DNA of 64,000 bases from Candidatus Moraniibacteriota bacterium (GCA_041583775.1 JBFHFF010000003.1:28547-92546); one strand, 5' to 3'; counted from the stretch's first letter, positions 6,484 to 37,919 are shown. A program made the numbers and translations. Notes: generated by a model from the letters alone, not told the origin.

Positions 6484-7671
6484 ATGAAGCTTTTATTGAT
6501 TAAAGTTGGGAAGGCCTTTGCCACAATCAGGAAAGAAGGATTTATTAGAGGAGGGAAGCGAGTTTTTAAGGGATTTTTTTCACTTTTTGGACGAGTTAAA
6601 AAAGGTGATATTCTAATTGTTACTGGTGGGATAGGTGACAGTGCGAGATATCGTGCTTATCATGTTGCAGAGGAATTGAATTTGAACGGGATAAAAACCT
6701 CTGTTACAATTCAGGACAATCCCTTTTTGGCAAAATATCCTTTAGATTTTCAGATTTTAATTTTTCATAGAGTCCTTTTTACTCCTGCTGTGAAGAAGAT
6801 GATTCAAAAAGCAAAAGATTTAGGGAGGGAGATAATTTTCGATACAGACGATTTGGTTTACGATCCAAAGTTTTTAAAATTTATGGATTATTACAAGCAG
6901 ATGAATTCTTTAGAGAAAAAGCTCTATGAAAATGGTGTTGGCGGGGAAATTATTAAAGATGACTATGTAAAAGTTTGCACGACAACTACAACCTATCTCG
7001 CAGATAAACTAAAAGAAGAGAATAAAAATGTTTTCATTGTTCCCAATAAGTTATCAATGGAAGATTTGAGATGGTCAGTCGATGCACTTGAAATTGCTAA
7101 AAAAGAAAATGATGAAAAAAAAGATACCGTCGTAATCGGTTATTTTAGTGGAACAATAAGTCACAATAAGGATTTTGCAACAATTACAAAGCCACTCATT
7201 GCTATTTTGGAGAAGTTTTCCCAAGTTAAACTTTTTTTAGCGGGACCACTTAATCCTGAAGATGATCTAGTTTCTCGATTTGGTAAAAGAATAATCAACA
7301 CTCCGTATGTGGCAAGAAGGGAACATTTTAAAAATGTTGCGACTGTTGATATTAATATTTCTCCTCTAGAATTAGACAATCCTTTTTGTGAGGCAAAGAG
7401 TGAATTGAAATTTTTTGAGGCTGGAATTGTAAAAGTTCCTACCGTGGCTGTTGCAAATCAAACTTTTTCAGAAGTAATTGAGGATGGTTTAGATGGGTTT
7501 GTAGCAAAAAATGAAAAGGAATGGGAGGAAAAATTGGAAAAATTAATATTAAGCCAGGAGCTAAGGAGGGAGATGGGTCAGGCTGCTTATGAAAAAGTTG
7601 TAGAGAAATATACCACCAAGAATGCTAAAAATATGGTTTATTATGATTTTCTAAAAACAAAAATAAAGTAA
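6484..7671 (+). CDS. Glycosyltransferase, GT4/GT1-like
   Basis: C-terminal GT-B donor domain (FFEAGIVKVPTVAVANQTFSEVIEDGLDGFVAKNEKEWEEKL). It starts 5 nt after the stop of the upstream GT, so the two form an operon. Confidence 0.55.
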   Translation: MKLLLIKVGKAFATIRKEGFIRGGKRVFKGFFSLFGRVKKGDILIVTGGIGDSARYRAYHVAEELNLNGIKTSVTIQDNPFLAKYPLDFQILIFHRVLFTPAVKKMIQKAKDLGREIIFDTDDLVYDPKFLKFMDYYKQMNSLEKKLYENGVGGEIIKDDYVKVCTTTTTYLADKLKEENKNVFIVPNKLSMEDLRWSVDALEIAKKENDEKKDTVVIGYFSGTISHNKDFATITKPLIAILEKFSQVKLFLAGPLNPEDDLVSRFGKRIINTPYVARREHFKNVATVDINISPLELDNPFCEAKSELKFFEAGIVKVPTVAVANQTFSEVIEDGLDGFVAKNEKEWEEKLEKLILSQELRREMGQAAYEKVVEKYTTKNAKNMVYYDFLKTKIK

Positions 7672-7780
7672 TTTTCAGTTTACGATTAAATTCAAGGTAG
7701 AAATTCTGCCTTGAATTATTCCATTCTTATGATTTGGCTCTGGGCGTCTAATAGTGAGTTTAGGCTGTGAAAATAAGTTG

Positions 7781-8368
7781 CTAGACAATCCTTCCTAGCC
7801 AGAGAATAATAAAAATTCCAAAAACATTAAAAACAAAAGAGACTGAAGTAAATGTTCTAAACGAAAAGTCTTTCGAGGCATGAACTAGTGACATTGCGAA
7901 TTCATCAGGGAAAGGAAGTGCTGAAGCTATGCCAGCAAAAACTGGCAAAACATATTTTCGGATGAATCTAGGTGTGAATTTATCTAACTTTTCAATCATC
8001 CAGCGAAAAAGTTTAGTTTGTGAAGCTGAGTCAATTTCTTCAGCATATGAAATTCTGAGATATTCAAAAATCAAAAAATTTCCAATAATGGAACCAATAA
8101 TTGCAATTATTCCGGAAATAAAAAATGGCTGACTATTGCCGATTAGGAGCAATGTTGCAACTGCTGGGCCAAGTGTTAGTCCATGCGAGAAAAACATTCC
8201 AGCAAGAAAGGTTGCTAAAAACCCAAATTTTGTGATGAGTATATGAAAATTAAAATTGTTATCATCGGTATATATTAAAATTCCAAGTATAATTGAAAAT
8301 CCGAAAAGAATAAGTTTCGGATATTTGACTTCGATTAGTAATTTTTCAAATGTTGAAATTTTTTCCAT
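7781..8368 (-). CDS. Hypothetical polytopic membrane protein
   Basis: About 5 predicted hydrophobic helices. No recognisable catalytic motif. Confidence 0.4.
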   Translation of the reverse strand: MEKISTFEKLLIEVKYPKLILFGFSIILGILIYTDDNNFNFHILITKFGFLATFLAGMFFSHGLTLGPAVATLLLIGNSQPFFISGIIAIIGSIIGNFLIFEYLRISYAEEIDSASQTKLFRWMIEKLDKFTPRFIRKYVLPVFAGIASALPFPDEFAMSLVHASKDFSFRTFTSVSFVFNVFGIFIILWLGRIV

Positions 8369-8508
8369 TTTTGTTTTTTATAAATTTTGATATATTAATT
8401 TTGAATTAATTTGCTAATGTATGAATGTTTTATTGCCATTTTCATGCATTGTTGTTTTTTCATTTAATCTAACGGAGCTTGCCTTTGTGGGAATGATATC
8501 TGTTTAGT

Positions 8509-8538
8509 TAAATATGTAATTAATTACTTACATATTTA
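8509..8538. promoter_or_regulatory. Perfect 11-bp palindrome TAAATATGTAA-n8-TTACATATTTA (candidate operator)
   Basis: The inverted repeat is directly visible at 8509..8519 and 8528..8538. It sits in the 5' region of the minus-strand gene 7781..8368 and downstream of tRNA-Thr. Confidence 0.3.
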
Positions 8539-8712
8539 CTGGTTTTAATCGTTTGATTTATCCCCTTAGATTGAGAGGATGTTAGTTGTAGTCAGGAGCG
8601 TCGTGTTTTTGTCTAATCATTGGCAAGTTCAATCCACAGAACTTTAACCTATTCTAATTCTCACTTAATCTAAGAGGGGAGTAGGACTAGGCGCTAAATA
8701 CTCTAAACCTAG

Positions 8713-8785
8713 AGCTTCCTGTCAGGATCGAACTGACGACCTATGCGTTACGAGTGCATTGCTCTACCAACTGAGCTAAGGAAGC
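8713..8785 (-). tRNA. tRNA-Thr (anticodon CGU)
   Basis: Reverse complement folds as a canonical cloverleaf: acceptor GCTTCCT/AGGAAGC, D-arm GCTC-AGTTGGTA-GAGC, anticodon arm ATGCA-CTCGTAA-CGCAT (U33, anticodon CGT, A37), variable AGGTC, T-arm GTCAG-TTCGATC-CTGAC. One A-C mismatch at positions 31-39. No encoded CCA. Confidence 0.8.
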
Positions 8786-8853
8786 AAAAGTACCAAAGTC
8801 ATTGTATACTTATATTTTGATTTTTTCAACAATCTAATATATAATAATAACAT

Positions 8854-9952
8854 ATGACACTAGAAGAATTAAAGAAAAAAGCAAAAGAATTGAGAGATAA
8901 AATCGTCCAGATGGACGACTGTCTTTGACTTAGAAACACAAAGGAAAGAAATGAAGGAGTTGCAAAAAGATTCCGAGAGAGAAAATTTTTGGGATGATTC
9001 TAGGCAGGCGGGAATGGTAATGAAAAAAATCGAAAATATAAAAGAAGAAAGAGAAAGATGGGAGGATATACAAAATAGCAGTATTGGACTATTAGAATTT
9101 TTAGAGATTATAGATGAAAATGGAAAAGAAGATCTAGAAACAGCATTTATTCAATACGAAAAAACCTTAAAGAATTTTAAGTCTGTTGAGATTGAAAAGT
9201 TGTATAGTGGTGCATATGATAAGGGGGATGCAATTATTTCAATTCATGCAGGTGCTGGTGGTGATGATGCGCAGGATTGGGCGGAAATGCTTTTAAGGAT
9301 GTATCTAAGATTTTGTGAGAAGAAAAAATATAAAGTTAAGATTTTACAGGAAACAAAAGGGGCTGAGGCTGGGATTAAAAGTGTGATGTTTGAAGTTGGC
9401 GGAAAATTTGCATATGGGAATTTTAGTGCAGAGGCGGGGGTTCATAGACTTGTTCGTTTATCGCCATTTAATTCAGATAATTTGCGCCAGACATCCTTCG
9501 CTCTTTTGGAAGCAATTCCAATGATTGAGGATAGTGAAGAAATTATAGTAGATCCAAGTGAGTTAAAAGTCGATACATTCCGCTCTTCAGGAGCAGGAGG
9601 ACAATCTGTTAATACGACTGATTCTGCTGTTAGAGTCACTCATTTACCAACTAACACGGTAGTTAGTTGTCAAAATGAAAGATCTCAAATACAAAACAAG
9701 GAAAAAGCAATTGCTATTTTGAAATCAAAACTACTCCAAAAGCAAGAAAATGAAAAAATTGAAAGAGAAAAAAAATTGAAAGGAGAACATGTGTCCGCAG
9801 AGTGGGGAAGTCAAATTCGTTCATATGTTTTACATCCTTATAAAATGATCAAGGATCATAGAACGGATGAACAGACAGCTAATGTCGATTCAGTTTTAAA
9901 CGGAGATATTGAGATTTTTATTGAAAAATTTTTAAAAAAACAAGTTAAATAG
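8854..9952 (+). CDS. prfB: Peptide chain release factor 2 with programmed +1 ribosomal frameshift. Frame-0 segment 8854..8925 ends at CTT-TGA-C; the +1 frame continues from 8927.
   Basis: SPF motif for UGA/UAA recognition (RLVRLSPFNSDNLRQTSF), GGQ motif (SGAGGQSVNTTDSAVRVTHLPT) and the C-terminal SYVLHPY block. The short upstream ORF MTLEELKKKAKELRDKIVQMDDCL ends in the canonical shift heptamer CTT TGA C (8923..8929). After the +1 shift the reading frame matches the listed 8951..9952 ORF exactly. Confidence 0.85.
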
Positions 9953-25861: not shown

Positions 25862-26188
25862 ATGTTGGTTTTTAATTTTTTCTTAAAGATTTTTATTGTA
25901 ATTTTAGTGGGGACTATTTTTCTTCTAATTGTTGGGAAAATTCCTCCAAGTGGTGCAATTGGCTTTCGACCAATTGACGATGGATGTTATGGGATCGGAT
26001 TTGAAAATAAAGAGGTTTATGATAAATTTCCAAAAGGAAAAATTAGAATAGAATCTTTTAATCTTGAATATTATGTTCCTAATGAATCAGAAAAAAAATC
26101 TCCAGATGGATTTTGCTTAGGAAAAAATTTTTGGGATAAGAAAAAATGGGAAGAAGAAAAGAAACTTCAAATTAATCAAGTAAAATAG
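25862..26188 (+). CDS. Small membrane-anchored protein, paralog A (N-terminal TM, conserved Cys pair)
   Basis: One N-terminal TM helix. The shared core with 26267..26563 is (I/L)GFRP(I/V)(D/Q)D(G/E)C(Y/F)GI...NLEY(Y/D)VP....GFCLG(K/Q). Confidence 0.45.
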   Translation: MLVFNFFLKIFIVILVGTIFLLIVGKIPPSGAIGFRPIDDGCYGIGFENKEVYDKFPKGKIRIESFNLEYYVPNESEKKSPDGFCLGKNFWDKKKWEEEKKLQINQVK

Positions 26189-26266: not shown

Positions 26267-26563
26267 ATGTTTAAATTAATTGGATTGATTTTAAAAATAG
26301 CAATTATTATTTTTGTTTTAGGTTTTGTTCATAGATATATTTCAGAGCGATGGGATTTGGGGTCACTTGGCTTTAGACCTGTTCAAGATGAGTGTTTTGG
26401 AATTATAATAGAAGCTGATGATGTTTATAAATCCTATGATTCACTTCCTTTTTTACCAAAAGGACAGCTAAAAACGAAATATTTTAATTTAGAATATGAT
26501 GTCCCGAGAAGTAAGGCCGAGGCTATGAATGGTTTTTGTTTGGGGCAAGATAAGAAAAAATAA
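26267..26563 (+). CDS. Small membrane-anchored protein, paralog B
   Basis: Same architecture and conserved motifs as 25862..26188 (LGFRPVQDECFGI...NLEYDVP...GFCLGQDKKK). This is a tandem duplicate. Confidence 0.45.
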   Translation: MFKLIGLILKIAIIIFVLGFVHRYISERWDLGSLGFRPVQDECFGIIIEADDVYKSYDSLPFLPKGQLKTKYFNLEYDVPRSKAEAMNGFCLGQDKKK

Positions 26564-27832: not shown

Positions 27833-28102
27833 ATGTTGGGTATAATTTTTTCAAGTAGCCCTTTAAGTTATTTAAAGTTTTTTTGATTTTCATTGACAAA
27901 TGAACACTGAAGGTGATACCATTTAAGCTAGAAACAGAAGAAAAAATAAAAATGAAAAAATTTTAATAAGTAAAAGAAGAATCGCTTGGTAAGGGAAAGT
28001 GGTGTGGTTGTGTTATTGCTTTAATTCTAGCAAGCAATTATTTATTAGTTGAGGAAAATGGGTTTAGTTTTAGGATAGATAATATGATTAATTTTTTGTT
28101 CC

Positions 28103-28798
28103 ATGTATTACGATAAATTTATCGAATTTGCGATTATACGAGGTGGAGTACCGGATGCAACGGTTGTGCTTATTTTAATGTTGCCAATTGTTGTTACGAT
28201 AATAGCGTTTTTTAGACAAGTGATTGGAATTAAGGCATTTGGTATTTACACCCCTGCCCTTATAACATTTGCATTTGCTGCGATTGGCTCAGAAGCAGAA
28301 AGTGTTTGGAAGGGTGGTGTCTACGGAGTCACCATTTTCATTGCTGTTATTTTTGTGGGGACAATGGTGAGATATGTTTTGAAGGGATTTCGCCTTTTAT
28401 ATCTTCCAAGAGTGGCACTGCTTATTACTATTGTTTCGTTATCAACTCTAGTTCTTTTAATAATTGGGGGAATGTCTCAAAGGACTGGGTTAGCAAGCGT
28501 TTCCATTTTTCCGATTTTGATTATGATTGCACTTGTTGAAAAATTTGTAGCAACTCAAATCGAAAAAGGTGCTAGAGCTGCAATCATTCTTTCATTTGAA
28601 ACATTGTTAATTTCATTAGTTTGTTATGCTGTTTTGACATGGGAGTCTTTGATTAGATTTGTATCGGTACATTCCTGGGTCGTGCTTTTTACAATTATAA
28701 TAAATATCTTTCTTGGAAAATGGACGGGACTTCGTTTAAGTGAAATGTTTAGATTTAAAGATGTTATCAAAAATGCTGAACACAATGATAAGAACTAA
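28103..28798 (+). CDS. Polytopic (about 7 TM) membrane protein of the type associated with RimK-like ligase/protease systems (7TM_transglut-like)
   Basis: 231 aa with about 6-7 hydrophobic helices. Its 3' end overlaps the ATP-grasp/protease gene. This is the canonical 7TM partner position in the three-component ATP-grasp/retropepsin systems. Confidence 0.5.
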   Translation: MYYDKFIEFAIIRGGVPDATVVLILMLPIVVTIIAFFRQVIGIKAFGIYTPALITFAFAAIGSEAESVWKGGVYGVTIFIAVIFVGTMVRYVLKGFRLLYLPRVALLITIVSLSTLVLLIIGGMSQRTGLASVSIFPILIMIALVEKFVATQIEKGARAAIILSFETLLISLVCYAVLTWESLIRFVSVHSWVVLFTIIINIFLGKWTGLRLSEMFRFKDVIKNAEHNDKN

Positions 28799-30176
28799 GG
28801 GAATTCTGGGAATGAATGCCCGGAACCTAAAATATATAAGACCATACAATCTTAAGGGTCCAAAGCGTTTAGCAGATGATAAACTTCGTTGCAAGAACGT
28901 TTTTAAAAAAGGTGGAATTCCAGTGCCAGAGTTGATTGCTAAAATTAAAACAAAAGAAGAGCTTGATAAATTTGATTTCTCTTCTTTGCCAAACAGTTTC
29001 GTTTTGAAACCGAACTTTGGTTTTGGTGGGGAGGGAATTTTGGTTGTTTATGGAAAGAAAAAAAAGAAAGATAATGTTTGGGTGAAAGCAAATAGAGATC
29101 CGGTAACGGAGGATGACTTAAGAACTCACATTTGGAATATTTTAGATGGTTCTTTTTCTCGAACTAACACTGCTGATATTGCATTTTTCGAAGAAAGAAT
29201 TCAACTTTTAAAACTTTTTAAGCCGTATGCATTTAAGGGAATTCCTGATATTCGCGTAATTGTTTTCAATCGCGTTCCAGTTATGGCAATGCTCAGACTT
29301 CCAACAGAAGCTTCTGGTGGAACTTCAAACGTTCATCAAGGAGGAATCGCTGTTGGAATTGATATGGCTACAGGTGTAACAACAACAGCCATTCAATATA
29401 ACCGTACAGTTGAATATGCCCCAGGAACAAGATTGCTTTTGAGCGGAATCAGAATTCCAAATTGGAAGGAGATATTAAGGTTAGCAATCAAATCACAGGA
29501 TGTTTCAAAATTGGGCTATTTAGGTGCTGATATTGCAATTGATAGAATTAAGGGACCAGTTTTTATGGAAATCAACGCCCGTCCAGGTCTTGCAATTCAA
29601 AATGCCAACCAAGATGGACTTCTTTCCCGTCTTCAGAGAGTTGAGGGCTTGAAAGTGAAAACTGTTTCACAGGGCGCCGCTTTAGCACAGAATCTTTTTG
29701 GAGGAGAAATCGAAGAAGAGATTGAGGAGCTCTCGGGAAAGAAAATTATTGGCTTGATTGAGAAAGTGAAACTGAAAAGTACTGACGGAAGGATTATCGA
29801 AATAGAAGCAAAGATAGATACAGGGGCAGATTCTTCTTCAATTGACACTGAGTTGGCAAGACAACTAGGTTTTGGCTCGACAATTGATGAGTTTCATAAG
29901 ATAGATATTTCTGGATATGATATTTTGCCCGAAAAAGAGAAAAAAATAAAAGAAGATTTTATGAAAAAATTTGGAGAACAAGTTCCAAATTTAGAAAATA
30001 TTGCAGTTGTTTTTTCTTCCTCAGGAAAATCAATTCGTCCTGTTGTTAAATGTTTATTCTCCATGGATGATGAGGTAGTAATATCCAAGATGAATATTAC
30101 AGATAGAAGTAAATTGAAATACCAAATGATTGTTGGAAGAAAGGATTTGAAGAAATTTTTAATTGAAATCAGCTAA
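28785..30176 (+). CDS. Alpha-L-glutamate-ligase-like ATP-grasp enzyme fused to a C-terminal retropepsin-like aspartic protease domain (DUF785/Zn_protease type). The track ORF starts at 28740; an internal start at MIRTKGILGMNARN is likely.
   Basis: The N-terminus (GILGMNARNLKYIRPYN...DDKL...K) matches the rimK-related ligase family start. ATP-grasp core (GFGGEGI, ...EINARPG). C-terminal ~140 aa carry a retropepsin-like aspartyl-protease DTGA motif (GRIIEIEAKIDTGADSSSID). Confidence 0.7.
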   Translation: MIRTKGILGMNARNLKYIRPYNLKGPKRLADDKLRCKNVFKKGGIPVPELIAKIKTKEELDKFDFSSLPNSFVLKPNFGFGGEGILVVYGKKKKKDNVWVKANRDPVTEDDLRTHIWNILDGSFSRTNTADIAFFEERIQLLKLFKPYAFKGIPDIRVIVFNRVPVMAMLRLPTEASGGTSNVHQGGIAVGIDMATGVTTTAIQYNRTVEYAPGTRLLLSGIRIPNWKEILRLAIKSQDVSKLGYLGADIAIDRIKGPVFMEINARPGLAIQNANQDGLLSRLQRVEGLKVKTVSQGAALAQNLFGGEIEEEIEELSGKKIIGLIEKVKLKSTDGRIIEIEAKIDTGADSSSIDTELARQLGFGSTIDEFHKIDISGYDILPEKEKKIKEDFMKKFGEQVPNLENIAVVFSSSGKSIRPVVKCLFSMDDEVVISKMNITDRSKLKYQMIVGRKDLKKFLIEIS

Positions 30177-30192
30177 TCCTTGAAAGAAAAAA

Positions 30193-31845
30193 ATGTTTAA
30201 AGAAAATCAATTTCTGAGAAAAATTAGTGAAAGAGAGGGGAATAATGGGAAAGTAGTTGAATATTCCGAGAAAGCATATGATGATTTGGATGAAAATGTT
30301 AAAAATAGATTTTTAGAAAAAAAACAAAAAGAACTTGGTTTCAGCTATGTTAACGGTGGAGAAGAGACCTCTATTTTGATTTCTGGCTCACACGCCGCAG
30401 ATTTAGCAAAAACTAGTTTAAACATAGATAAAGATGAGATAGAATTCCTAAACAAGGAAGAGGAAAGAGGAGAGAGATATCGAATGGATGATGATGAAAA
30501 GTTGATGATAGGGAAACATTATATTAACGCTTCAGTGAGGGAGAAAAAAATAGGAGAATACAAGGCAGATTCTGGTGTTAGTGCAATGGGTATCGAATTG
30601 CAAGACGATTTAATATTAAAAGATTCAAAGAGGGCTCCAAACTTATTGTTATATGAACTGCCACAAGTTTTTTCGGAACCAAACAAGGTTGATTCAAAAA
30701 GTAGGCCAATGGCAGTGGTTGATTTGTCTGTGTATAATAAATTTGGAATTCATAAGTTAGAACAATTTATAACAAGAAAAGGAGTGAGTTCCATAACCTC
30801 AGAAGAAGTAGCGCTTGTTAGGAGAGGAGACTATTCTAAAATTTCCGAAGATGAAATTGACTTAGATAAGAAAGGGGCCCTATTGGAGTGTGAAAAAATT
30901 GTTCAGGATTCAAAAGGGGACGAAGGAAAATATAGAAAAATCATAGCTTCTTTGGGAATTTTAAAAATTCACAGGAAATATTATGAGAAACAAGAAGAAT
31001 TATTATATGGAAATCCAGATGCTAAATTCCCAATAAATCTGGATATACACACAGCGTTTGATTCTCTAAAACAAGAAGAAGGCTTTGACGCTATCATAGG
31101 GTCACGAATGGGAAGTAGCGTTAGTGACCCAGAAGTTGAAATGCTATTCTCTTTAATTCTGAAAAAACATGGATTTAAAGTAAATCTTTCAAGTTTTAAC
31201 AATTTCCCCATAAAAGCTGGTGAAAAAGAAAAGGATGGGCTCAGGAGACTCTTGGAATCGACAAAAGCAATTTTGAGTCAGGAACAAGTGCAATTGCTTG
31301 ATGGAACTGAAGAAATGAAACAAAAGGAAGATGTCCTGGCACATTTAGATATTTTATTTGATAGAAGATTGGAAAAAATGGGAGATTCTAGAAAGCTTTT
31401 GTTAAGATTTTTAGACTGGAAAGATAAGCAAAACTTAGTTAATGAAAATAGTACAGATGATGAAATTAGGGATATTGCAAAGAAAGTTTTTCTAGAGGAA
31501 GCTACTGAATTTTCCTTGGAAAATCTTGTTCTTTTATTAAAACAAAACCTAGTTAATTTATTTTTAAGTGGCAAAACTCATGATGATCGCTTTAGAGGTG
31601 GTTTAATGGGCCTTTCATCTTTGCAGGATAAATTTGATGCCAAGGATAAATATGAAAAAGCTAGGGGTAGTAAAATTAATCCAGAGATTTTTCAAATAGA
31701 AATTATTGCAAGTATCATGAAGAATAAAAGCAAAAGAAAGGATTTTGAAGATGCTATAGAAGAATTTTTTAGTTTGGTGCAACAGAAAGATTTTGAGCCC
31801 AAAGAAGTGTTGAAAAAAATAATAAATCAACAGAATTTTAAATGA
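30193..31845 (+). CDS. Hypothetical 550-aa acidic/charged protein with no recognisable domain, embedded in the ATP-grasp operon
   Basis: Open frame with an ATGA stop/start overlap to the next ATP-grasp gene. Highly Glu/Lys/Asp-rich. No motifs recognised. Confidence 0.45.
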   Translation: MFKENQFLRKISEREGNNGKVVEYSEKAYDDLDENVKNRFLEKKQKELGFSYVNGGEETSILISGSHAADLAKTSLNIDKDEIEFLNKEEERGERYRMDDDEKLMIGKHYINASVREKKIGEYKADSGVSAMGIELQDDLILKDSKRAPNLLLYELPQVFSEPNKVDSKSRPMAVVDLSVYNKFGIHKLEQFITRKGVSSITSEEVALVRRGDYSKISEDEIDLDKKGALLECEKIVQDSKGDEGKYRKIIASLGILKIHRKYYEKQEELLYGNPDAKFPINLDIHTAFDSLKQEEGFDAIIGSRMGSSVSDPEVEMLFSLILKKHGFKVNLSSFNNFPIKAGEKEKDGLRRLLESTKAILSQEQVQLLDGTEEMKQKEDVLAHLDILFDRRLEKMGDSRKLLLRFLDWKDKQNLVNENSTDDEIRDIAKKVFLEEATEFSLENLVLLLKQNLVNLFLSGKTHDDRFRGGLMGLSSLQDKFDAKDKYEKARGSKINPEIFQIEIIASIMKNKSKRKDFEDAIEEFFSLVQQKDFEPKEVLKKIINQQNFK

Positions 31846-33617
31846 AAATTTCAGTAATAACCAAAAAAGAAACTTGGCAAACAAGGGAGTTGCAGAAAGA
31901 GTCTCGTAAAATGGGAATAGAGTTGGAGCTGAGAGATTTGGAGAATCTAAACCAGGGGATTGATGAGCTTGGGGATGTTGTGTTTTGGAGAGCAAATTCA
32001 ATGAATCTGTTCGATGGCGGAGCAGCTACAATTTCTCTTATCAAAAAGAGTGGTAGAATTATTGTGAGTCAAGGTATTTCAGAATTTCCATTTATTAGGA
32101 ACAAGCTTTTTCAGCAGAAATTTATAGAGGGTTTCAGTGGTATTAACACTATTGAAACATTTACTTTTGCAAACAAAGAAGATCTTGCCAGCTCTTTAGA
32201 AGAAGGAATTTTAAATTTTCCTTTTGTTCAAAAACCAGCAGTAGGCAGAAGAGGCGAGGGTGTTAAACTAATAGATTCTTGTGAATCTATGGAAAAACAA
32301 AGAGGTGAATATAGTAAAGTTGTTTATCAAAATTTTATAAAAAACAAAGGTGATTTTAGAGTGTTGGTATTGGGAGGAAAACCTCTCGGCGCAATAAAAA
32401 GGGTTGCAAGAAAAGGAAGCTTTTTAAATAATTTTTCTAAGGGAGGGACTTGCACCAACATTGATGATAAGGAAGTTAGAGAAATTTTGTTTGGAATTGC
32501 GATTAAAGTTGCTTCATATTTTAAATTAGCTTTTTGTGGTGTAGATATTATTTTTGATGAAAATAAAAAAAAGTATTTCTTCTTGGAAGTAAATACTCTC
32601 CCTCAATGGGAGGGTTTTCAGGGTGCTACAAATATTAATGTTTCTTTTGAGTTGCTGAATTTTTTTAAAGTTATGCACGAGAGGGGGAGAAGGGGTAGTA
32701 GAGAATTGGTATCCGAATATTATGAGGATAATTTAGACAAGCTTAGTTTTGAGAAGTCTTTTCATTATATTTCACGTTTGTTTCTTTGGGAAAACAGAAA
32801 AGAACTGTCAGTAAAATTAGAGTGTTTTAAGCAGGGTTTTATTGGTGAAACAGAAGATGATATTTTGGGAAATTTTAGAAAAACTTTTTCTGAAGTTGAA
32901 AAATATCAAGAAAGAGTGAAAAATGATATTTCAGCCAGAGAAAAATATATCAAAAAGTATCCTTTGCTGGGAGTTTATAATAGAATATTGTTTCAAGCGC
33001 TTATATCTAAAACAGTCTATAAAAAGGATGTGGCTGATATAGTTTCAAAAGTTTTGGACAGGGAACATGCTCTTAAAATGAGAGATGAACTCATGGGAGA
33101 TGAGGAGGCACTAAAATCTCTTTCTACGCATGCAATTAATTTTCTTTATTTTTCACAAGAGATTTTTGGTAAATTTTTTGAAGTCGATGTAAAAAAGTTA
33201 CACAGAATTTCAATTAGCGATTTTGGGAAGAGCGATGAGAGTTTGCTGCTTAAAATTTATTTCTTAACACACTGTATTATTGGTGAGTCGAGATTTTATT
33301 CTCAAGCAGTTAATGATGAAAAGGGTATTTATACAGAGATGATAAAAGCACTTGAAGAAATTATTAAAGAAAATTATTTTAGAGTTAGTTTGGACAATAA
33401 AATGGAGTTTCTTGTTTGTTCAAGAATGTGTGGCTTTAAGTCCTCAGTTGAGAAAATTTTGATTGCAGAGGCAGAAAGCTCTATGTCAGAAATTGGAAAC
33501 TATATTGTTGATATTTTAAATGCAAAAGGGGGGGATAAAAGAAAAAAAGATTTTTGGAACTCAGAACATAGAAATGTTTTATATTTAATGGCTACAAGTA
33601 AACTAAAAAAATGGTAA
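31842..33617 (+). CDS. RimK-family ATP-grasp ligase with a ~300-aa C-terminal all-helical extension of unknown function
   Basis: N-terminal ~290 aa are RimK-like (MKISVITKKETWQTRELQKESRKMGIELELRD...GDFRVLVLGGKPLGAIKRVARKGSFLNNFSKGGTCTNI...FFLEVNTLPQWEGF). The C-terminal 300 aa have no recognisable motif. Confidence 0.65.
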   Translation: MKISVITKKETWQTRELQKESRKMGIELELRDLENLNQGIDELGDVVFWRANSMNLFDGGAATISLIKKSGRIIVSQGISEFPFIRNKLFQQKFIEGFSGINTIETFTFANKEDLASSLEEGILNFPFVQKPAVGRRGEGVKLIDSCESMEKQRGEYSKVVYQNFIKNKGDFRVLVLGGKPLGAIKRVARKGSFLNNFSKGGTCTNIDDKEVREILFGIAIKVASYFKLAFCGVDIIFDENKKKYFFLEVNTLPQWEGFQGATNINVSFELLNFFKVMHERGRRGSRELVSEYYEDNLDKLSFEKSFHYISRLFLWENRKELSVKLECFKQGFIGETEDDILGNFRKTFSEVEKYQERVKNDISAREKYIKKYPLLGVYNRILFQALISKTVYKKDVADIVSKVLDREHALKMRDELMGDEEALKSLSTHAINFLYFSQEIFGKFFEVDVKKLHRISISDFGKSDESLLLKIYFLTHCIIGESRFYSQAVNDEKGIYTEMIKALEEIIKENYFRVSLDNKMEFLVCSRMCGFKSSVEKILIAEAESSMSEIGNYIVDILNAKGGDKRKKDFWNSEHRNVLYLMATSKLKKW

Positions 33618-34501
33618 AAAACTTCCTAATACTCTCGAGTGAGGGTGTGAAATTTGACTTTAGAAACAAAAGATTATCAGAAGAGATAGAAAAGAAAGGG
33701 TCCAGATTCGATATTGTTTTTGTTCAGGATCTTAGTATTTCTTGTGATAAAGTCGTTTTCAGAGATGAAGAAATAGATTTTTATAAATATGATTATATTA
33801 TCTCGGTAGGAACTCCTGATGCAAATCTTTACATAATTGATTTAGCAACTAAAAAAAATCCAAAAATTAAAGCCTGGCCAAATGTCCAGAACCATGGAAT
33901 GGTAGATAAATTTACAGAAGGAACGACTCTTGAGGCTATTGGAATCCCAATTCCGAAGACCACCCTCCTCGCTTTTTTGGAAGATGATTATATAAATAAA
34001 GAGGCTGAAATTGTCGGAGGTTTTCCTTGTGTGGCCAAAAAAGTTACAGGTGCTTCTGGAGATTATGTTGAGTTGGTTAATTCTTCTGATGAAATAAAAA
34101 AGTTTATTGAAAAACTTTCGGTTCCAAGCATAATTGGCAAAAGAAATATAATTTTACAAGAATATATAGAAGAGTCAAAGGGGACAGACTTTAGAGTTTA
34201 CTGTGTTGGAGATAAAGTTCTTGGTGCAATAAAAAGAACCGCCAAAGACGGCGGATTTAAAGCAAATGTCTCTTTGGGTGGAGATGCCGAAAAGGCTGAA
34301 ATTTCGAAAGAAATGAAGGAATATGCCCAAAAGATCATGCAAGCTAGTGGGCTTATGTTTGCTGGTATAGATTTTATCAAAAGCAATAGAGGTTATTTAG
34401 TTTTGGAGATAAATATATCAGCAAACTTTCAAGGATTTGAAACTGCAACCGGAGTTAATGTCGCAGGAGAAATTATTGAGAAATTCTTGGCATATGAATA
34501 G
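33611..34501 (+). CDS. RimK-family ATP-grasp ligase, paralog 3
   Basis: 296 aa, RimK-sized. ATP-grasp blocks GTDFRVYCVGDKVLGAIKRTAKDGGFKANVSLGG and GYLVLEINISANFQGFE. 7-nt overlap with the upstream gene. Confidence 0.75.
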   Translation: MVKNFLILSSEGVKFDFRNKRLSEEIEKKGSRFDIVFVQDLSISCDKVVFRDEEIDFYKYDYIISVGTPDANLYIIDLATKKNPKIKAWPNVQNHGMVDKFTEGTTLEAIGIPIPKTTLLAFLEDDYINKEAEIVGGFPCVAKKVTGASGDYVELVNSSDEIKKFIEKLSVPSIIGKRNIILQEYIEESKGTDFRVYCVGDKVLGAIKRTAKDGGFKANVSLGGDAEKAEISKEMKEYAQKIMQASGLMFAGIDFIKSNRGYLVLEINISANFQGFETATGVNVAGEIIEKFLAYE

Positions 34502-34529
34502 GCGTAATTATTATTCTTAAATAACACAC

Positions 34530-35423
34530 ATGAAGCATTTTTTAATTATATTCAAGGATAAAGTGAAAAGCGGATATAGAATTGATAGAGTTGTCACAGA
34601 GATAAAAAACGCTGGGCACGATGTTGATTTGGTTTGTAGTGTTGGAATGAAAATTACGGCTGCAGGCTTTTTGGTAGACAATAAAATTTTGAATTTGGCT
34701 AAGTACGATATCGTTTTTTCGATTGGCAATGGTGAACTACAGCATCAGCTTGCTACAGTTATTTCCTGTTATACCAAATCAGTTTTCTGGCCTGATAAAG
34801 AAGCTCTTTTTTATGATGATAAATTTAATGAAGCAGTTTTTATGGAGTCAATTGGTGTGCCTAAGCCGAAAACAATATTATTGACAAGTACGAAAAGTAA
34901 AGATATTGATGATTTGATTAAAGAGGTCGAGGGGTACCCATGCATTATTAAAAAAGCTATGGGCTCAGGAGGAGAATTTGTCGAGCTAGCGAATTCTAGC
35001 TCTGATGTATTGGATTTTTTAGATAAAGTGCCACATCCAAGTATAAGTGGAAAAAGAAACATTATTTTGCAAGAATACATAAAAGAATCAAAAGGCACTG
35101 ATTTTAGGGTTTTTTGTGTGGGAGAAAAAGTTCTCGGTACAATTAAAAGGACATCCAGAAACGGTGGATTTAAGGCAAATGTTTCTTTAGGAGGAAAAGC
35201 AGAGAAAGTTGAAATTTCTAAAGAGATGAAGGCATATGCTAAAAAGATTATGAAAGAGAGTAAACTTCTGATTGCTGGGATTGATTTCATAAAAAGCAAT
35301 AGAGGTTATTTAGTTTTGGAGATAAATATATCACCCGGTATTGAAGGTTTTGAAAAGGCAACCGGAGTTAATGTAGCTAAAAAGATTGTTTTAGGACTTC
35401 TCGAAAGAACACAACAAAAATAG
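34530..35423 (+). CDS. RimK-family ATP-grasp ligase, paralog 4 (recent tandem duplicate of 33611..34501)
   Basis: 297 aa. The C-terminal half is largely identical to paralog 3 (GTDFRVFCVGEKVLGTIKRTSRNGGFKANVSLGGKAEKVEISKEMKAYAKKIM...IDFIKSNRGYLVLEINIS). Confidence 0.75.
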   Translation: MKHFLIIFKDKVKSGYRIDRVVTEIKNAGHDVDLVCSVGMKITAAGFLVDNKILNLAKYDIVFSIGNGELQHQLATVISCYTKSVFWPDKEALFYDDKFNEAVFMESIGVPKPKTILLTSTKSKDIDDLIKEVEGYPCIIKKAMGSGGEFVELANSSSDVLDFLDKVPHPSISGKRNIILQEYIKESKGTDFRVFCVGEKVLGTIKRTSRNGGFKANVSLGGKAEKVEISKEMKAYAKKIMKESKLLIAGIDFIKSNRGYLVLEINISPGIEGFEKATGVNVAKKIVLGLLERTQQK

Positions 35424-35486
35424 CTGGCAAAAATAAAACAAACTTGTTAGAATAAAGAGAATAAAAATATTAACAAATTTTAATAT

Positions 35487-37919
35487 ATGTTGTTAGTGAA
35501 ACTAGCGTTTCTTGCTATAGGAGTTTGGATATTGGCAAAGCTATTGCTGTCAAATAAAAACTTTAGAAATATGGGGAAGAAAAAAAATCGTAAAATGGAG
35601 ACTGATGAGAAAAAAGCGGAAAAGAAAAATCTCCTTAAAAAAATTCTCTGGGCCTCATTCTATTTTGGTGGGGTGGTTTTTTTGCTTGTAGTTGCTGCAA
35701 TTAGCTACTCCTTTGTTAAATATGCAAAGGATTTGCCGAACCCAGAAAAAGTCAATAGTCGTGTCGTTGCTGAATCGACAAAGATTTTTGATAGAACAGG
35801 AGATGTTTTGTTGTATGAAGTTTTCGGAGAAGAAAAAAGAACTATAATCCCAATGGAAGAAATTCCCGATTCAGTTAAATATGCAACAATCTCTTTAGAA
35901 GATAATATTTTTTACTCACATAATGGTTTTGACACAGGCGGTCTTATTAAGGCTGTTTGTCATGAGGTTTCTTCAAGGATTGGATTGGGAGATTTAGGCG
36001 GTCTTTGTCCTCAAAGAGGTGGTTCTACCATTACTCAACAATTTATCAAAAATTCAATTTTAACATCTGAAAGAAGCTATGAAAGAAAATTAAAAGAGCT
36101 TATTTTAGCAGTGGAAATGGAACAGAAATTTTCTAAGGATGAGATTTTGAGAATGTATCTAAACGAGATTCCCTATGGTTCCAATGCTTATGGTATTGAG
36201 GCCGCAGCACAAACCTTTTTCGGAGTACATGCAAGGGAATTAACATTAGCACAATCAGCTTTGTTGGCTGGGTTGCCCAATGCTTCAACTTTTTATTCTC
36301 CCCATGGTTCGAATACTGATCGTTTATTGGTTCGTTGGAAGAAAGCTTTGAATTTGATGACCGATTTGGGTTATATAACAAGAGAGCAGGCAGACGCAGC
36401 AATGACAGAGGATATTTTAGGTCAGATAAAACCAATAAAGGCGGATATCAAGGCGCCTCATTTTGCATTATATGTCAGGGAGAAATTGATTGAGGAATTT
36501 GGCGAAGAAAAATTGAAAGAAAAAGGCTTGAAAATTTATACAACACTTGATTGGGACCTGCAACAACTTGGTGAACGAGTTGTTAAAGAAGGTGTCGAAA
36601 AAAATGGCGAAAGGTATGGATTTACAAATTCAGCATTAGTTGCAACAAATCCTAAAAATGGACAAGTTTTGGCAATGGTTGGGTCAAAGGATTATTTTGA
36701 TGAATCAATTGATGGGAATGTTAATGTTACGACGCGTTTGAGACAGCCTGGTTCGTCTGTGAAGCCATATGTATATGCGCAAGCTTTTGCTGAAGGTTTT
36801 CAGCCAGATACAATGCTTTATGATGTCGAGACTAAGTTTTCTGAATCTGAAAATGAAGACGAAGAATATAAACCACAGAATTATGATGGTAAATTTAGAG
36901 GACCAGTAACTATGAAACAAGCATTGGCAACCTCGCTTAATGTTCCAGCAGTTAAAACACTATATCTAGCGGGAATGAAGCCAACAATAAAATTGATGAA
37001 TTCTATGGGGATAACAACTCTTACCGATCCTTCTCGTTATGGACTTTCCTTGGTGTTGGGAGGTGGAGAAGTTAAATTGATTGAACATGTTGGAGCTTTT
37101 GGAGTTTTTGCAAACGAGGGTGTAAAACAGGAGCAATCAGTTATTTTGAAAGTAGAAGATGCAGACGGGAATATTTTAAGGGAATTTAAAGAAAGCGAGG
37201 GAAAGCAAGTTTTGGATAAAAAAGTTGCTGCACAAATTTGTTCTATTTTATCTGATAACAACCTAAGAGCATCCGCATTTGGAGTGCAAAATCCTTTGAA
37301 TATCGAGGGAAAAAGTGTAATTGCAAAAACTGGAACAACAAATGAATATCGTGATGGTTGGTTAGTTGGAGCTTCTCGTTCTTTGGCAGCTGGTGTTTGG
37401 TCTGGGAATAACGATAATACAGCTATGAAAGTTGGAGCTGCTGGTGCAAACATTTCTGGTCCAACTTGGCACGCTTTTATGGAGGAGGCACTAAAGAATT
37501 ATCAAGATGAAGAGTTCCCAAAAATAGAAGATATAGAAGCAGAGTCTGATGGTGACAGTGAGGAGGGGCAGGATGATGAAGAAAAAGTGAGTTATGAAAA
37601 GAAGACAGGTATGTTATATGGGAAAGTTGATTTTGTTCAACAAGTTAAAGTTTGTAAATATGACGATGGTAAATATTGTTTAGAAAATAGTAGCTGTCCC
37701 GAGAAAAAAGTTGAAAAGAAAAAATATTTCACAGGACATACTATTTTATATTATATAGACAAGGACGACCCAACCGGGGATGCTCCAAAAGATCCAAATA
37801 AGGATCCTCAATATAAAAATTGGGAAAAGGCGGTTACGAAGTGGGGAGAGGAGCATGCTGATGACAAAGGGCGTGATTTGCCCCCAGAAAAGGAATGCAA
37901 GGACAGTTATTTTGACTAG
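35487..37919 (+). CDS. Class A penicillin-binding protein (bifunctional transglycosylase/transpeptidase, PBP1A-like) with a Cys-containing C-terminal extension
   Basis: GT51 motifs (EDNIFYSHNGFD, GGSTITQQFIKN, RMYLNEIPYG). Transpeptidase motifs (SSVKP, SLN, KTGTT). An N-terminal TM anchor. A ~130-aa C-terminal tail with Cys residues. Confidence 0.8.
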   Translation: MLLVKLAFLAIGVWILAKLLLSNKNFRNMGKKKNRKMETDEKKAEKKNLLKKILWASFYFGGVVFLLVVAAISYSFVKYAKDLPNPEKVNSRVVAESTKIFDRTGDVLLYEVFGEEKRTIIPMEEIPDSVKYATISLEDNIFYSHNGFDTGGLIKAVCHEVSSRIGLGDLGGLCPQRGGSTITQQFIKNSILTSERSYERKLKELILAVEMEQKFSKDEILRMYLNEIPYGSNAYGIEAAAQTFFGVHARELTLAQSALLAGLPNASTFYSPHGSNTDRLLVRWKKALNLMTDLGYITREQADAAMTEDILGQIKPIKADIKAPHFALYVREKLIEEFGEEKLKEKGLKIYTTLDWDLQQLGERVVKEGVEKNGERYGFTNSALVATNPKNGQVLAMVGSKDYFDESIDGNVNVTTRLRQPGSSVKPYVYAQAFAEGFQPDTMLYDVETKFSESENEDEEYKPQNYDGKFRGPVTMKQALATSLNVPAVKTLYLAGMKPTIKLMNSMGITTLTDPSRYGLSLVLGGGEVKLIEHVGAFGVFANEGVKQEQSVILKVEDADGNILREFKESEGKQVLDKKVAAQICSILSDNNLRASAFGVQNPLNIEGKSVIAKTGTTNEYRDGWLVGASRSLAAGVWSGNNDNTAMKVGAAGANISGPTWHAFMEEALKNYQDEEFPKIEDIEAESDGDSEEGQDDEEKVSYEKKTGMLYGKVDFVQQVKVCKYDDGKYCLENSSCPEKKVEKKKYFTGHTILYYIDKDDPTGDAPKDPNKDPQYKNWEKAVTKWGEEHADDKGRDLPPEKECKDSYFD

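Follow-up and report, generated by a model that had tools for sequence, protein, structure and literature searches.

Introduction

Systems that join an ATP-grasp ligase to a retropepsin-like protease were reportedly first predicted by Iyer et al. in 2009. In this work we describe a six-gene operon of this kind, located at positions 28103–35423 of a 64,000-nt stretch of DNA from a Candidatus Moraniibacteriota bacterium (GCA_041583775.1, JBFHFF010000003.1:28547-92546; the whole stretch analysed is henceforth referred to as the window). It encodes four ATP-grasp ligases, a seven-transmembrane (7TM) protein, a retropepsin fused to one of the ligases, a toroid domain fused to another and a 550-aa orphan protein. 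The closest described systems are named Rlo and Rim. RloABC of Pseudomonas aeruginosa has been characterised genetically (Lormand et al., mBio 2025; PMC12239564): the RloA proteins are secreted retropepsins that cleave poly-glutamate in vitro and require at least eight consecutive glutamates for cleavage, cells lacking all three are misshapen, sensitive to antibiotics and die under hypo-osmotic conditions, and deletion of rloB or rloC suppresses the triple rloA mutant, fully with regard to hypo-osmotic growth and partly for the other defects. This suppression would be expected if the protease had to clear away something made by the ligase and the 7TM protein, and the authors speculate on a role in peptidoglycan homeostasis (PMC12239564). 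Nearly all matches to RloB (96%) come from Proteobacteria (PMC12239564). In the Rim systems, RimB strips glutamate tails from RpsF and stimulates RimK to produce free poly-alpha-glutamate of up to ~28–36 residues; RimB/RimK pairs and hybrids are widespread, and biochemical work has shown that the RimB-RimK hybrid of Desulfotalea psychrophila is active (Little et al., JBC 2025; PMC11957791).

A preliminary description of the locus, made from the sequence alone, had taken its core of 7TM protein, ligase and retropepsin to be functionally uncharacterised, a view that the two studies above have overtaken. In our view the locus is a variant, with several ligases and specific to one lineage of Patescibacteria, of the Rlo/Rim systems of ATP-grasp ligase and retropepsin. 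We favour the reading that the operon is a membrane-associated system of Rlo/Rim type which builds and trims glutamate-type chains, and put its probability at roughly one half. The reading draws on direct observations: the identity of the domains, the integrity of the catalytic motifs, and the conservation of the gene order and of the fusions.

Results and Discussion

Gene content of the operon

Within a window of ~33% G+C, the operon consists of six co-oriented open reading frames (ORFs) on the plus strand, abutting or overlapping one another (Table 1). Genes 1 and 2 overlap by 14 nt, genes 3 and 4 by 4 nt (ATGA) and genes 4 and 5 by 7 nt; 16 nt separate gene 2 from gene 3, and 28 nt separate gene 5 from gene 6. 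The preliminary description had spoken of seven genes while itself listing six; its ORF coordinates, co-orientation and tight junctions were reproduced, and profile searches bore out the 7TM protein, the ligase–retropepsin fusion and the three further RimK ligases that it had proposed (PF14402, PF14397, PF05618 and PF08443).

Table 1. Coordinates of the operon, its domains and motifs, and flanking features in the window.
Feature	Position	Strand	Description
Promoter-like site	27893..27922	+	TTGACA, 18-nt spacer, TACCAT, extended -10 TG; 10/12 matches
Gene 1	28103..28798	+	231 aa, 7TM membrane protein, RloB-like
Gene 2	28785..30176	+	RloC-type ATP-grasp ligase (~aa 1-300) and RimB/RloA-type retropepsin (~aa 320-463)
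Gene 2, interdomain linker	29694..29753	+	Glu-rich LFGGEIEEEIEELSGKKIIG, directly before the protease domain
Gene 2, retropepsin catalytic motif	29817..29828	+	D-T-G-A
Gene 3	30193..31845	+	550-aa orphan, member of a very rare family
Gene 4 (591 aa), N-terminal half	31842..32666	+	RimK-family ATP-grasp ligase domain
Gene 4, C-terminal half	32694..33617	+	DUF3541-like (alpha/alpha)6-toroid; invariant motifs LST..N..Y, THCIIGES, LDNK.E, SEHRN
Gene 5	33611..34501	+	RimK-family ligase, 296 aa
Gene 6	34530..35423	+	RimK-family ligase, 297 aa
PBP1A	35487..37919	+	Class A penicillin-binding protein (PF00912 and PF00905), 63 nt 3' of gene 6

Gene 2 carries both a ligase and a protease. Its N-terminal part matches PF14397 (ATPgrasp_ST) with E=2e-69 and 234 bits (cutoff 31.4), and the protein scores 292.6 bits against TIGR02291, slightly below the cutoff of 314.2. 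The C-terminal part is a retropepsin of RimB/RloA type, as had been supposed beforehand (PF05618, E=6e-8, 33 bits against a cutoff of 27; RloA3 model, E=8e-10), and aligns to an RloA crystal structure (PDB 9G58) over K-x-DTGA, RPV and TDRS. It has no signal peptide and is fused C-terminal to a cytoplasmic ligase. Alternative starts exist at 28740 (GTG) and 28773 (ATG), so that gene 2 encodes 463–478 aa depending on the start chosen. The linker between the two domains contains a motif, LFGGE[IV]EEE[IVLM]E[EDS][ILV]SG[KR][KRS][IV]I[GS], that hardly varies among 24 of 26 distinct fusion proteins, with flanks that drift. Because RloA and RimB cut Glu-rich stretches, the linker is a candidate self-processing site or pseudo-substrate: it may be cleaved by the protease to which it is attached, or may fill the basic substrate channel of that protease.

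The product of gene 1 matches PF14402 (7TM_transglut, E=7e-28) over profile positions 39–247 of 248 and shows seven hydrophobic segments; it consists solely of seven transmembrane (TM) helices. With the NCBIfam RloB model only positions 312–508 of 508 match (74 bits, cutoff 900), that is, only the C-terminal 7TM part of RloB, and gene 1 is therefore without the N-terminal inactive-transglutaminase ectodomain that defines RloB.

The remaining three ligases belong to a different subfamily from that of gene 2. All match PF08443 (gene 4, E=2e-23, 83 bits; gene 5, E=3e-41; gene 6, E=1e-42), and with TIGR00768 (cutoff 143.4 bits) genes 5 and 6 score above the cutoff (174.5 and 165.9 bits) and the N-terminal domain of gene 4 below it (113.2 bits). 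Gene 5 shares 51% identity with gene 6, and the ligase domain of gene 4 is 31–33% identical to both. The ATP-binding lysine and the Mg-binding D...E-x-N triad are kept in all four ATP-grasp domains of the operon, so that none of them looks inactive.

We compared the ligases with models of better known families. The LysX/ArgX model TIGR02144 gave 132 and 119 bits (cutoff 275.6), graspetide maturase models (MvdC, MvdD and SAV_5884 type) 15–26 bits (cutoffs 350–475), glutathione synthase models 33–61 bits (cutoffs 272–299) and the cyanophycin synthetase model 18–39 bits (cutoff 850); with the MptN and CofF models the ligases were likewise far below the cutoffs. Identities as part of a LysW/LysX carrier system, a graspetide system, GshB or cyanophycin synthetase were rejected on these scores; the ligases are alpha-L-glutamate-ligase-like enzymes of RimK family or RloC type, which supports the RimK-like assignment of the preliminary description.

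Among solved structures genes 5 and 6 are nearest to the RimK proteins of E. coli and Pseudomonas, and gene 5 matches the E. coli structures 5zct and 4iwx at E=8e-30. This resemblance would suit a role in ribosome modification, in which the RimK paralogs poly-glutamylate S6 or another C-terminus, the retropepsin removes the tails and the extra genes act as regulators. RimB/RimK pairs and hybrids are common, and in Saccharibacteria classic pairs of a RimB-like protease and RimK (with the Rimk_N domain) lie beside DUF3541. However, genes 5 and 6 reach only 115.9 and 119.9 bits against the equivalog model for RimK (PRK10446, RpsF--glutamate ligase), where the cutoff is 331, and it is the RloC-type ligase, not RimK, that carries the protease. 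Besides, ribosome modification has no use for a 7TM membrane partner, there is no RimA/EAL regulator in the operon, and rpsF is outside the window. We regard this explanation as decidedly unlikely.

Distribution and gene fusions in Patescibacteria

One genome per species was scanned, giving 177 genomes with a relative of the toroid domain. The best 80 loci, all from Patescibacteria even where a record was mislabelled, were analysed, and features within 6.5 kb of the DUF3541-like domain were annotated by an iterated scan with hidden Markov models. At least one ATP-grasp ligase gene was present near the toroid domain in 75 of the 80 loci, and a retropepsin domain in 68. The DUF3541-like gene was stand-alone in 46 loci, fused to RimK in 24, and part of a triple fusion of RimK, DUF3541 and retropepsin in 10 (e.g. 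the 767-aa protein of locus L026, verified with Pfam). The RimK+DUF3541 and triple fusions are strong evidence that ligase, toroid and protease act together.

Clusters of the window type, in which the 7TM gene is followed by the RloC-type ligase and then by more ligases and the toroid, were found in 25 of the 80 loci, and in the first scan the retropepsin was fused to the RloC-type ligase in 22 of these. Three ligase genes per locus was the commonest number (13 loci), eight loci had two and two had one, some of the one- and two-ligase loci lying on truncated contigs; four ligases, as in the window, were present in L012 and L037. The window thus represents one end of the normal range, and the four-ligase arrangement, which the preliminary description had found unfamiliar, belongs to a kind of multi-ligase cluster that the neighbourhood comparison shows to be typical of this lineage. 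In many window-type loci another divergent ATP-grasp protein, of 313 aa, fills the slot that the orphan occupies here. The gene order that includes the orphan is repeated on independent contigs where the orphan protein is only 39–77% identical; this repetition, and the recurrence of the core in 25 of the 80 loci, argue that the arrangement is not due to chance. In our literature search neither the Patescibacteria clusters nor, as had been surmised, this exact operon turned up in any paper, and none of the six proteins matched the anti-phage defence models of PADLOC.

Other arrangements were also seen in this collection. The Saccharibacteria loci combine a RimB-like protease, RimK ligases and DUF3541, and have neither a 7TM protein nor an RloC-type ligase. 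The triple fusion occurs as single polypeptides of ~760 aa in L026 (9125–11428) and nine similar Saccharibacteria loci (L032, L035, L044 and L047 among them), and hybrids of retropepsin and RimK lie beside a stand-alone DUF3541 gene in L069, L072, L074 and L085. A GT4 glycosyltransferase gene is located between the RimK and stand-alone DUF3541 genes, overlapping the start of the latter, in L007 (6992–8032), L043, L050 and L056. Two loci of the Saccharibacteria type (L009 and L010) have a DUF192 gene after the RimB-like/RimK pair, and L010 has an unannotated 340-aa gene after the second RimK-like ligase; either gene is a possible component of the module. Genes for AbiEii-family toxins are found a few kb from the cluster in two unrelated loci (L002, 6538–7134; L007, 708–1481), probably by coincidence.

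A DUF3541-like toroid fused to RimK

The C-terminal half of gene 4, first described as a novel helical domain, is a DUF3541-like toroid. Its 307 aa match DUF3541 (PF12060) weakly (E=0.0056, 16.0 bits, cutoff 28.2). A search with this domain retrieved 27 proteins, mostly stand-alone and ~310 aa long; 14 of these 27 relatives (30–44% identical) already carry PF12060, and the toroid member of L092 scores 174 bits against it, from which we conclude that the gene 4 domain is homologous to DUF3541, although borderline as a direct member of that family. A retropepsin domain (PF05618) is present in two of the relatives, P0032 and P0033, and in L006 the toroid is a separate gene of 314 aa where the window has the fusion.

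The polar residues invariant in the family (domain numbering) are H24, R28, S144, N149, Y152, Y189, T192-H193-C194, Y202, Y213, D234, E238 and E291-H292-R293-N294, a set that is enzyme-like to judge from the alignment. C194 was invariant in the 22 stand-alone members and, in a wider alignment, replaced in two fused relatives, which makes a LanC-type zinc site seem unlikely. The best structural matches are six-hairpin sugar enzymes (GH105, GH88, GH15 and N-acylglucosamine epimerases) at 5–12% identity. We found no published function or structure for DUF3541 in the literature search; its (alpha/alpha)6-toroid fold and its association with RimK and retropepsin are new here.

The 550-aa orphan

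The third gene had been described as an acidic protein with no known domain. It indeed has no match in Pfam or NCBIfam; its acidity is only mild (isoelectric point 5.5; D+E 18.9% against K+R 16.7%). The family is very rare: six relatives were found in 5.8 billion proteins and 18 in 1.84 billion cluster representatives, and a profile of the family found no member in the other 78 of the 80 genome loci. A third homolog search, with a broadened profile, was limited by the word index and gave no additions.

The neighbours of this family are consistent. Among the full-length relatives that could be placed, those of L001 and L005 have the fusion gene on one side and the long RimK gene on the other, that of L006 precedes the stand-alone toroid gene, and that of L002 lies within a rearranged RimK cluster. 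More distant members follow a similar pattern: L092 has the order retropepsin, DUF3541, RimK and P0045 (22% identical to the orphan), and in L094 P0042, from a remote branch, precedes a RimK-like ATP-grasp gene. Three divergent branches of the family thus all adjoin RimK-type ligases. In L012 (Patescibacteria bacterium UBA2772, DEIO01000006.1) the homolog at 7507–9141 is disrupted by an in-frame TAG (7921–7923) and a frameshifted stretch (~8150–8235), with every other gene of the cluster intact beside it; it is either a pseudogene or an assembly error in a metagenome-assembled genome. Fragments of this gene are present in public databases as separate proteins, P0038, P0041 and P0043 fitting in length and matched region.

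Across 16 diverse members D126, E135, N164, H286, G303, Q501 and E503 are invariant and H67 nearly so; the C-terminus is neither conserved nor acidic. Scans of all members against Pfam, NCBIfam and PHROGs gave nothing consistent except sub-threshold matches to the formylglutamate amidohydrolase family (FGase, a Zn-amidohydrolase). The structure model is poor (pLDDT 62, with unconfident conserved N-terminal motifs), PDB searches with three profiles returned nothing relevant, Foldseek returned only helical noise, and an hhalign comparison with phage PghP gave a probability of 0.1%. An FGase-like fold is accordingly a weak lead, on balance doubtful. The presence of an extra ATP-grasp protein in the same slot elsewhere raised the idea that the orphan could be a degenerate ATP-grasp; this was discarded since predicted secondary structure and motifs do not fit.

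These data bear on the proposal that the operon is a protein-tagging cascade, in which the ligases attach different amino acids, one after another, to a peptide or the 550-aa protein and the tag is taken off by the protease. The ligase paralogs are several and divergent, with gene 2 from another subfamily, and RimK and LysX are precedents for the modification of protein C-termini; sequential, substrate-specific additions to a protein are possible. As a substrate, though, the orphan fits poorly. Its C-terminus is unconserved and non-acidic, its invariant His, Asp, Glu, Asn and Gln-x-Glu residues look catalytic, it is missing from 78 of 80 loci that have the remaining machinery and it is disrupted in L012, all of which makes the suggestion that it is the tagged protein unlikely. 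Neither does the operon offer a small carrier or precursor: no small plus-strand ORF for a LysW-type carrier or graspetide precursor was found in the only sizeable gap, and the LysX and graspetide models are far from their cutoffs. We consider such a cascade very unlikely, and from its residues the orphan is probably an accessory enzyme and not a substrate.

Proposed function

In the reading that we favour, the four ligases (RloC-type in gene 2, RimK-type in genes 4, 5 and 6) would each convert a carboxylate to an acyl-phosphate and couple it to an alpha-amino acid, for which L-glutamate is the most probable candidate. The product would be an acidic chain resembling oligo- or poly-alpha-glutamate, either free or attached to an acceptor that ends in a Glu-type carboxylate. 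By analogy with RimB, the cytoplasmic retropepsin would cut such acidic chains, setting their length and turnover, and might also stimulate the ligase, with the linker of gene 2 serving as self-processing site or pseudo-substrate. The toroid fused to RimK may bind or process the acceptor, the 550-aa protein could be an accessory enzyme, possibly a second amidohydrolase, and the 7TM protein may tether the machinery to the membrane or export its product. We infer that the residue added is glutamate, what kind of acceptor receives it, what toroid, orphan and 7TM protein do, and any cell-wall connection.

Several observations weigh against this reading. No ORF in the window has an acidic run of at least six residues or a C-terminal Glu-Glu that would mark an acidic acceptor, and rpsF is absent from the window too. 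The amino-acid specificity of the ligases cannot be read from sequence, and genes 5 and 6 are far below the RimK equivalog cutoff. The folds nearest to the toroid act on sugars or thioethers, not on peptides, and the fold assigned to the orphan did not pass three of the five tests to which it was put. Even RloABC, the model system, has no known product or substrate (PMC12239564), and since the window protease is cytoplasmic and RloA is secreted, the genetic logic of Rlo may not transfer.

PBP1A and the cell-envelope alternative

The preliminary description had placed the operon in a cell-envelope neighbourhood. PBP1A is indeed directly downstream, and it is the one gene that gives the setting this character. 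It was found near 16 of the 25 clusters of 7TM type, and three more PBP1A-linked loci (L024, L028 and L064) are on truncated contigs where the cluster type could not be called; among the 80 loci, none of those with intact upstream sequence and without an RloC-type ligase has PBP1A directly downstream. The usual arrangement is YebC, RuvC, the cluster, PBP1A, RuvA and then FemAB (L007, L029, L043, L050, L055 and L056), and L087 has YebC, RuvC, PBP1A and RuvA with no 7TM cluster inserted. It appears that the 7TM/ligase cluster was inserted between RuvC and PBP1A and, because the backbone exists without it in L087, the adjacency is mostly inherited synteny. We have accordingly downgraded it as functional evidence, for which it had seemed strong. 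In the lineage of the window and L012, cluster and PBP1A moved jointly into other surroundings, where LutB lies upstream and GroEL downstream, and this joint move is the only independent evidence for a link; PBP1A is a conserved neighbour and may be co-transcribed with the operon.

These neighbourhoods open an alternative in which the system decorates a cell-wall precursor or envelope glycopolymer. The ligases would attach amino acids to a carboxylate of a lipid-linked cell-wall intermediate on the inner side of the membrane, such as a uronic acid or, in the stem peptide of peptidoglycan, the alpha-carboxyl that D-iso-Glu leaves free. Glycan binding would fall to the toroid and editing of the product to the hydrolases, with export and polymerisation left to the 7TM protein and PBP1A. 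The sugar-acting enzymes among the best structural matches of the toroid speak for it, although this resemblance is only at the level of the fold. So do the GT4 gene within four of the clusters, the FemAB and Mur ligase genes nearby in L007, and the frequency of PBP1A beside 7TM-type clusters, with which it has moved in the lineage of the window; yet this adjacency comes mostly from the conserved backbone, and the Saccharibacteria loci with RimK, retropepsin and DUF3541 have no link with PBP1A and no 7TM protein. The family of the gene 2 ligase, PF14397, is named 'sugar-transfer associated' by Pfam, which we counted on the same side. The phenotypes of Rlo mutants (shape, beta-lactam sensitivity and hypo-osmotic lysis) also led their authors to suspect peptidoglycan homeostasis (PMC12239564), but the characterised homologs of the retropepsin cut peptide poly-Glu, not glycopeptides. 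Taken together, we think envelope decoration unlikely as an explanation of the operon, and the hypothesis of a cell-wall link has modest support. A broader version, quite unlikely in our estimation, is that a so far undescribed, lineage-wide module of RimK, DUF3541 and retropepsin, sometimes with the amidohydrolase-like protein, builds and edits an acidic alpha-linked chain on a cell-wall precursor or envelope acceptor, and that in one large branch this module is coupled to the 7TM protein and sits against PBP1A. If true, ultra-small bacteria would have an envelope modification of a new kind, and the long-sought class of the Rlo product in pathogens would be revealed.

Transcription signals and flanking genes

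In the 270-bp gap 5' of gene 1 lies a promoter-like site, the best in this region, and a purine-rich leader comes after it. The -35, the extended -10 and ~40 nt of this leader (CTAGAAACAGAAGAAAAAATAAAAATGAAAAAA, within 27893–27965) are kept in L012, the closest genome, in spite of the divergence of the proteins (the toroid domain is 56% identical). We detected no structure in the leader (z=0.37), no Rfam match and no riboswitch or leader RNA. At the other end, a terminator scan found no convincing terminator between gene 6 and PBP1A, and a weak promoter-like site is located in this interval (35424–35453).

Further upstream, the window encodes two paralogous small proteins of 108 and 98 aa (25862–26188 and 26267–26563), each with an N-terminal TM helix and with no Pfam family in precomputed annotation, which share the motif G.GFRP..D.C.GI...Y......K......FNLEY.VP.... 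and precede a LutB-like gene. These three genes are also found in front of the cluster in L012.

Comparison with known systems

The interest of the locus lies partly in what it may tell about its relatives. In P. aeruginosa, RloABC has effects on cell shape, biofilm formation and tolerance to antibiotics, and in Vibrio cholerae signalling of cell-wall damage strongly induces its orthologs. The fusions found in Patescibacteria point to physical partners not previously listed, DUF3541 and the orphan family, and those of ligase and protease, of ligase and toroid, and of all three are targets for biochemistry on single polypeptides. DUF3541 itself gains a fold and a functional neighbourhood, and the linker hypothesis can be tested. 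Were the link to the cell wall true, it would bear on how the envelope is built in tiny, often epibiotic bacteria.

Like RloABC, the window system has a ligase of the TIGR02291/PF14397 type, a seven-TM protein of PF14402 and a PF05618 retropepsin with DTGA, and the basic residues with which RloA binds poly-Glu are apparently kept in gene 2 (K-x-D, RPV and TDRS). It differs in that its 7TM protein is without the inactive-transglutaminase ectodomain, and in that its protease is fused and cytoplasmic, whereas RloA is stand-alone and secreted with an N-terminal signal peptide. The window adds three RimK paralogs, the DUF3541 toroid and the rare 550-aa protein, and its host belongs to Patescibacteria. 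With RimABK and RimBK it shares a cytoplasmic retropepsin that is physically coupled to a ligase, and the presence of RimK-family ligases. In RimBK, however, the protease is N-terminal to RimK, whereas here it is C-terminal to an RloC-type ligase, and in contrast to RimABK the window has no RimA (EAL) regulator, has a membrane partner, and its RimK paralogs miss the equivalog cutoff. Its toroid differs from typical DUF3541 (PF12060) in being below the Pfam cutoff and fused to RimK, and its orphan, with no significant match to the hydrolases FGase (PF05013), PghP and YndL, is two to three times longer than these and has large helical inserts. In short, the window system is a mixture of both known types, with the ligase and 7TM partner of Rlo and, as in Rim, a cytoplasmic protease coupled to a ligase.

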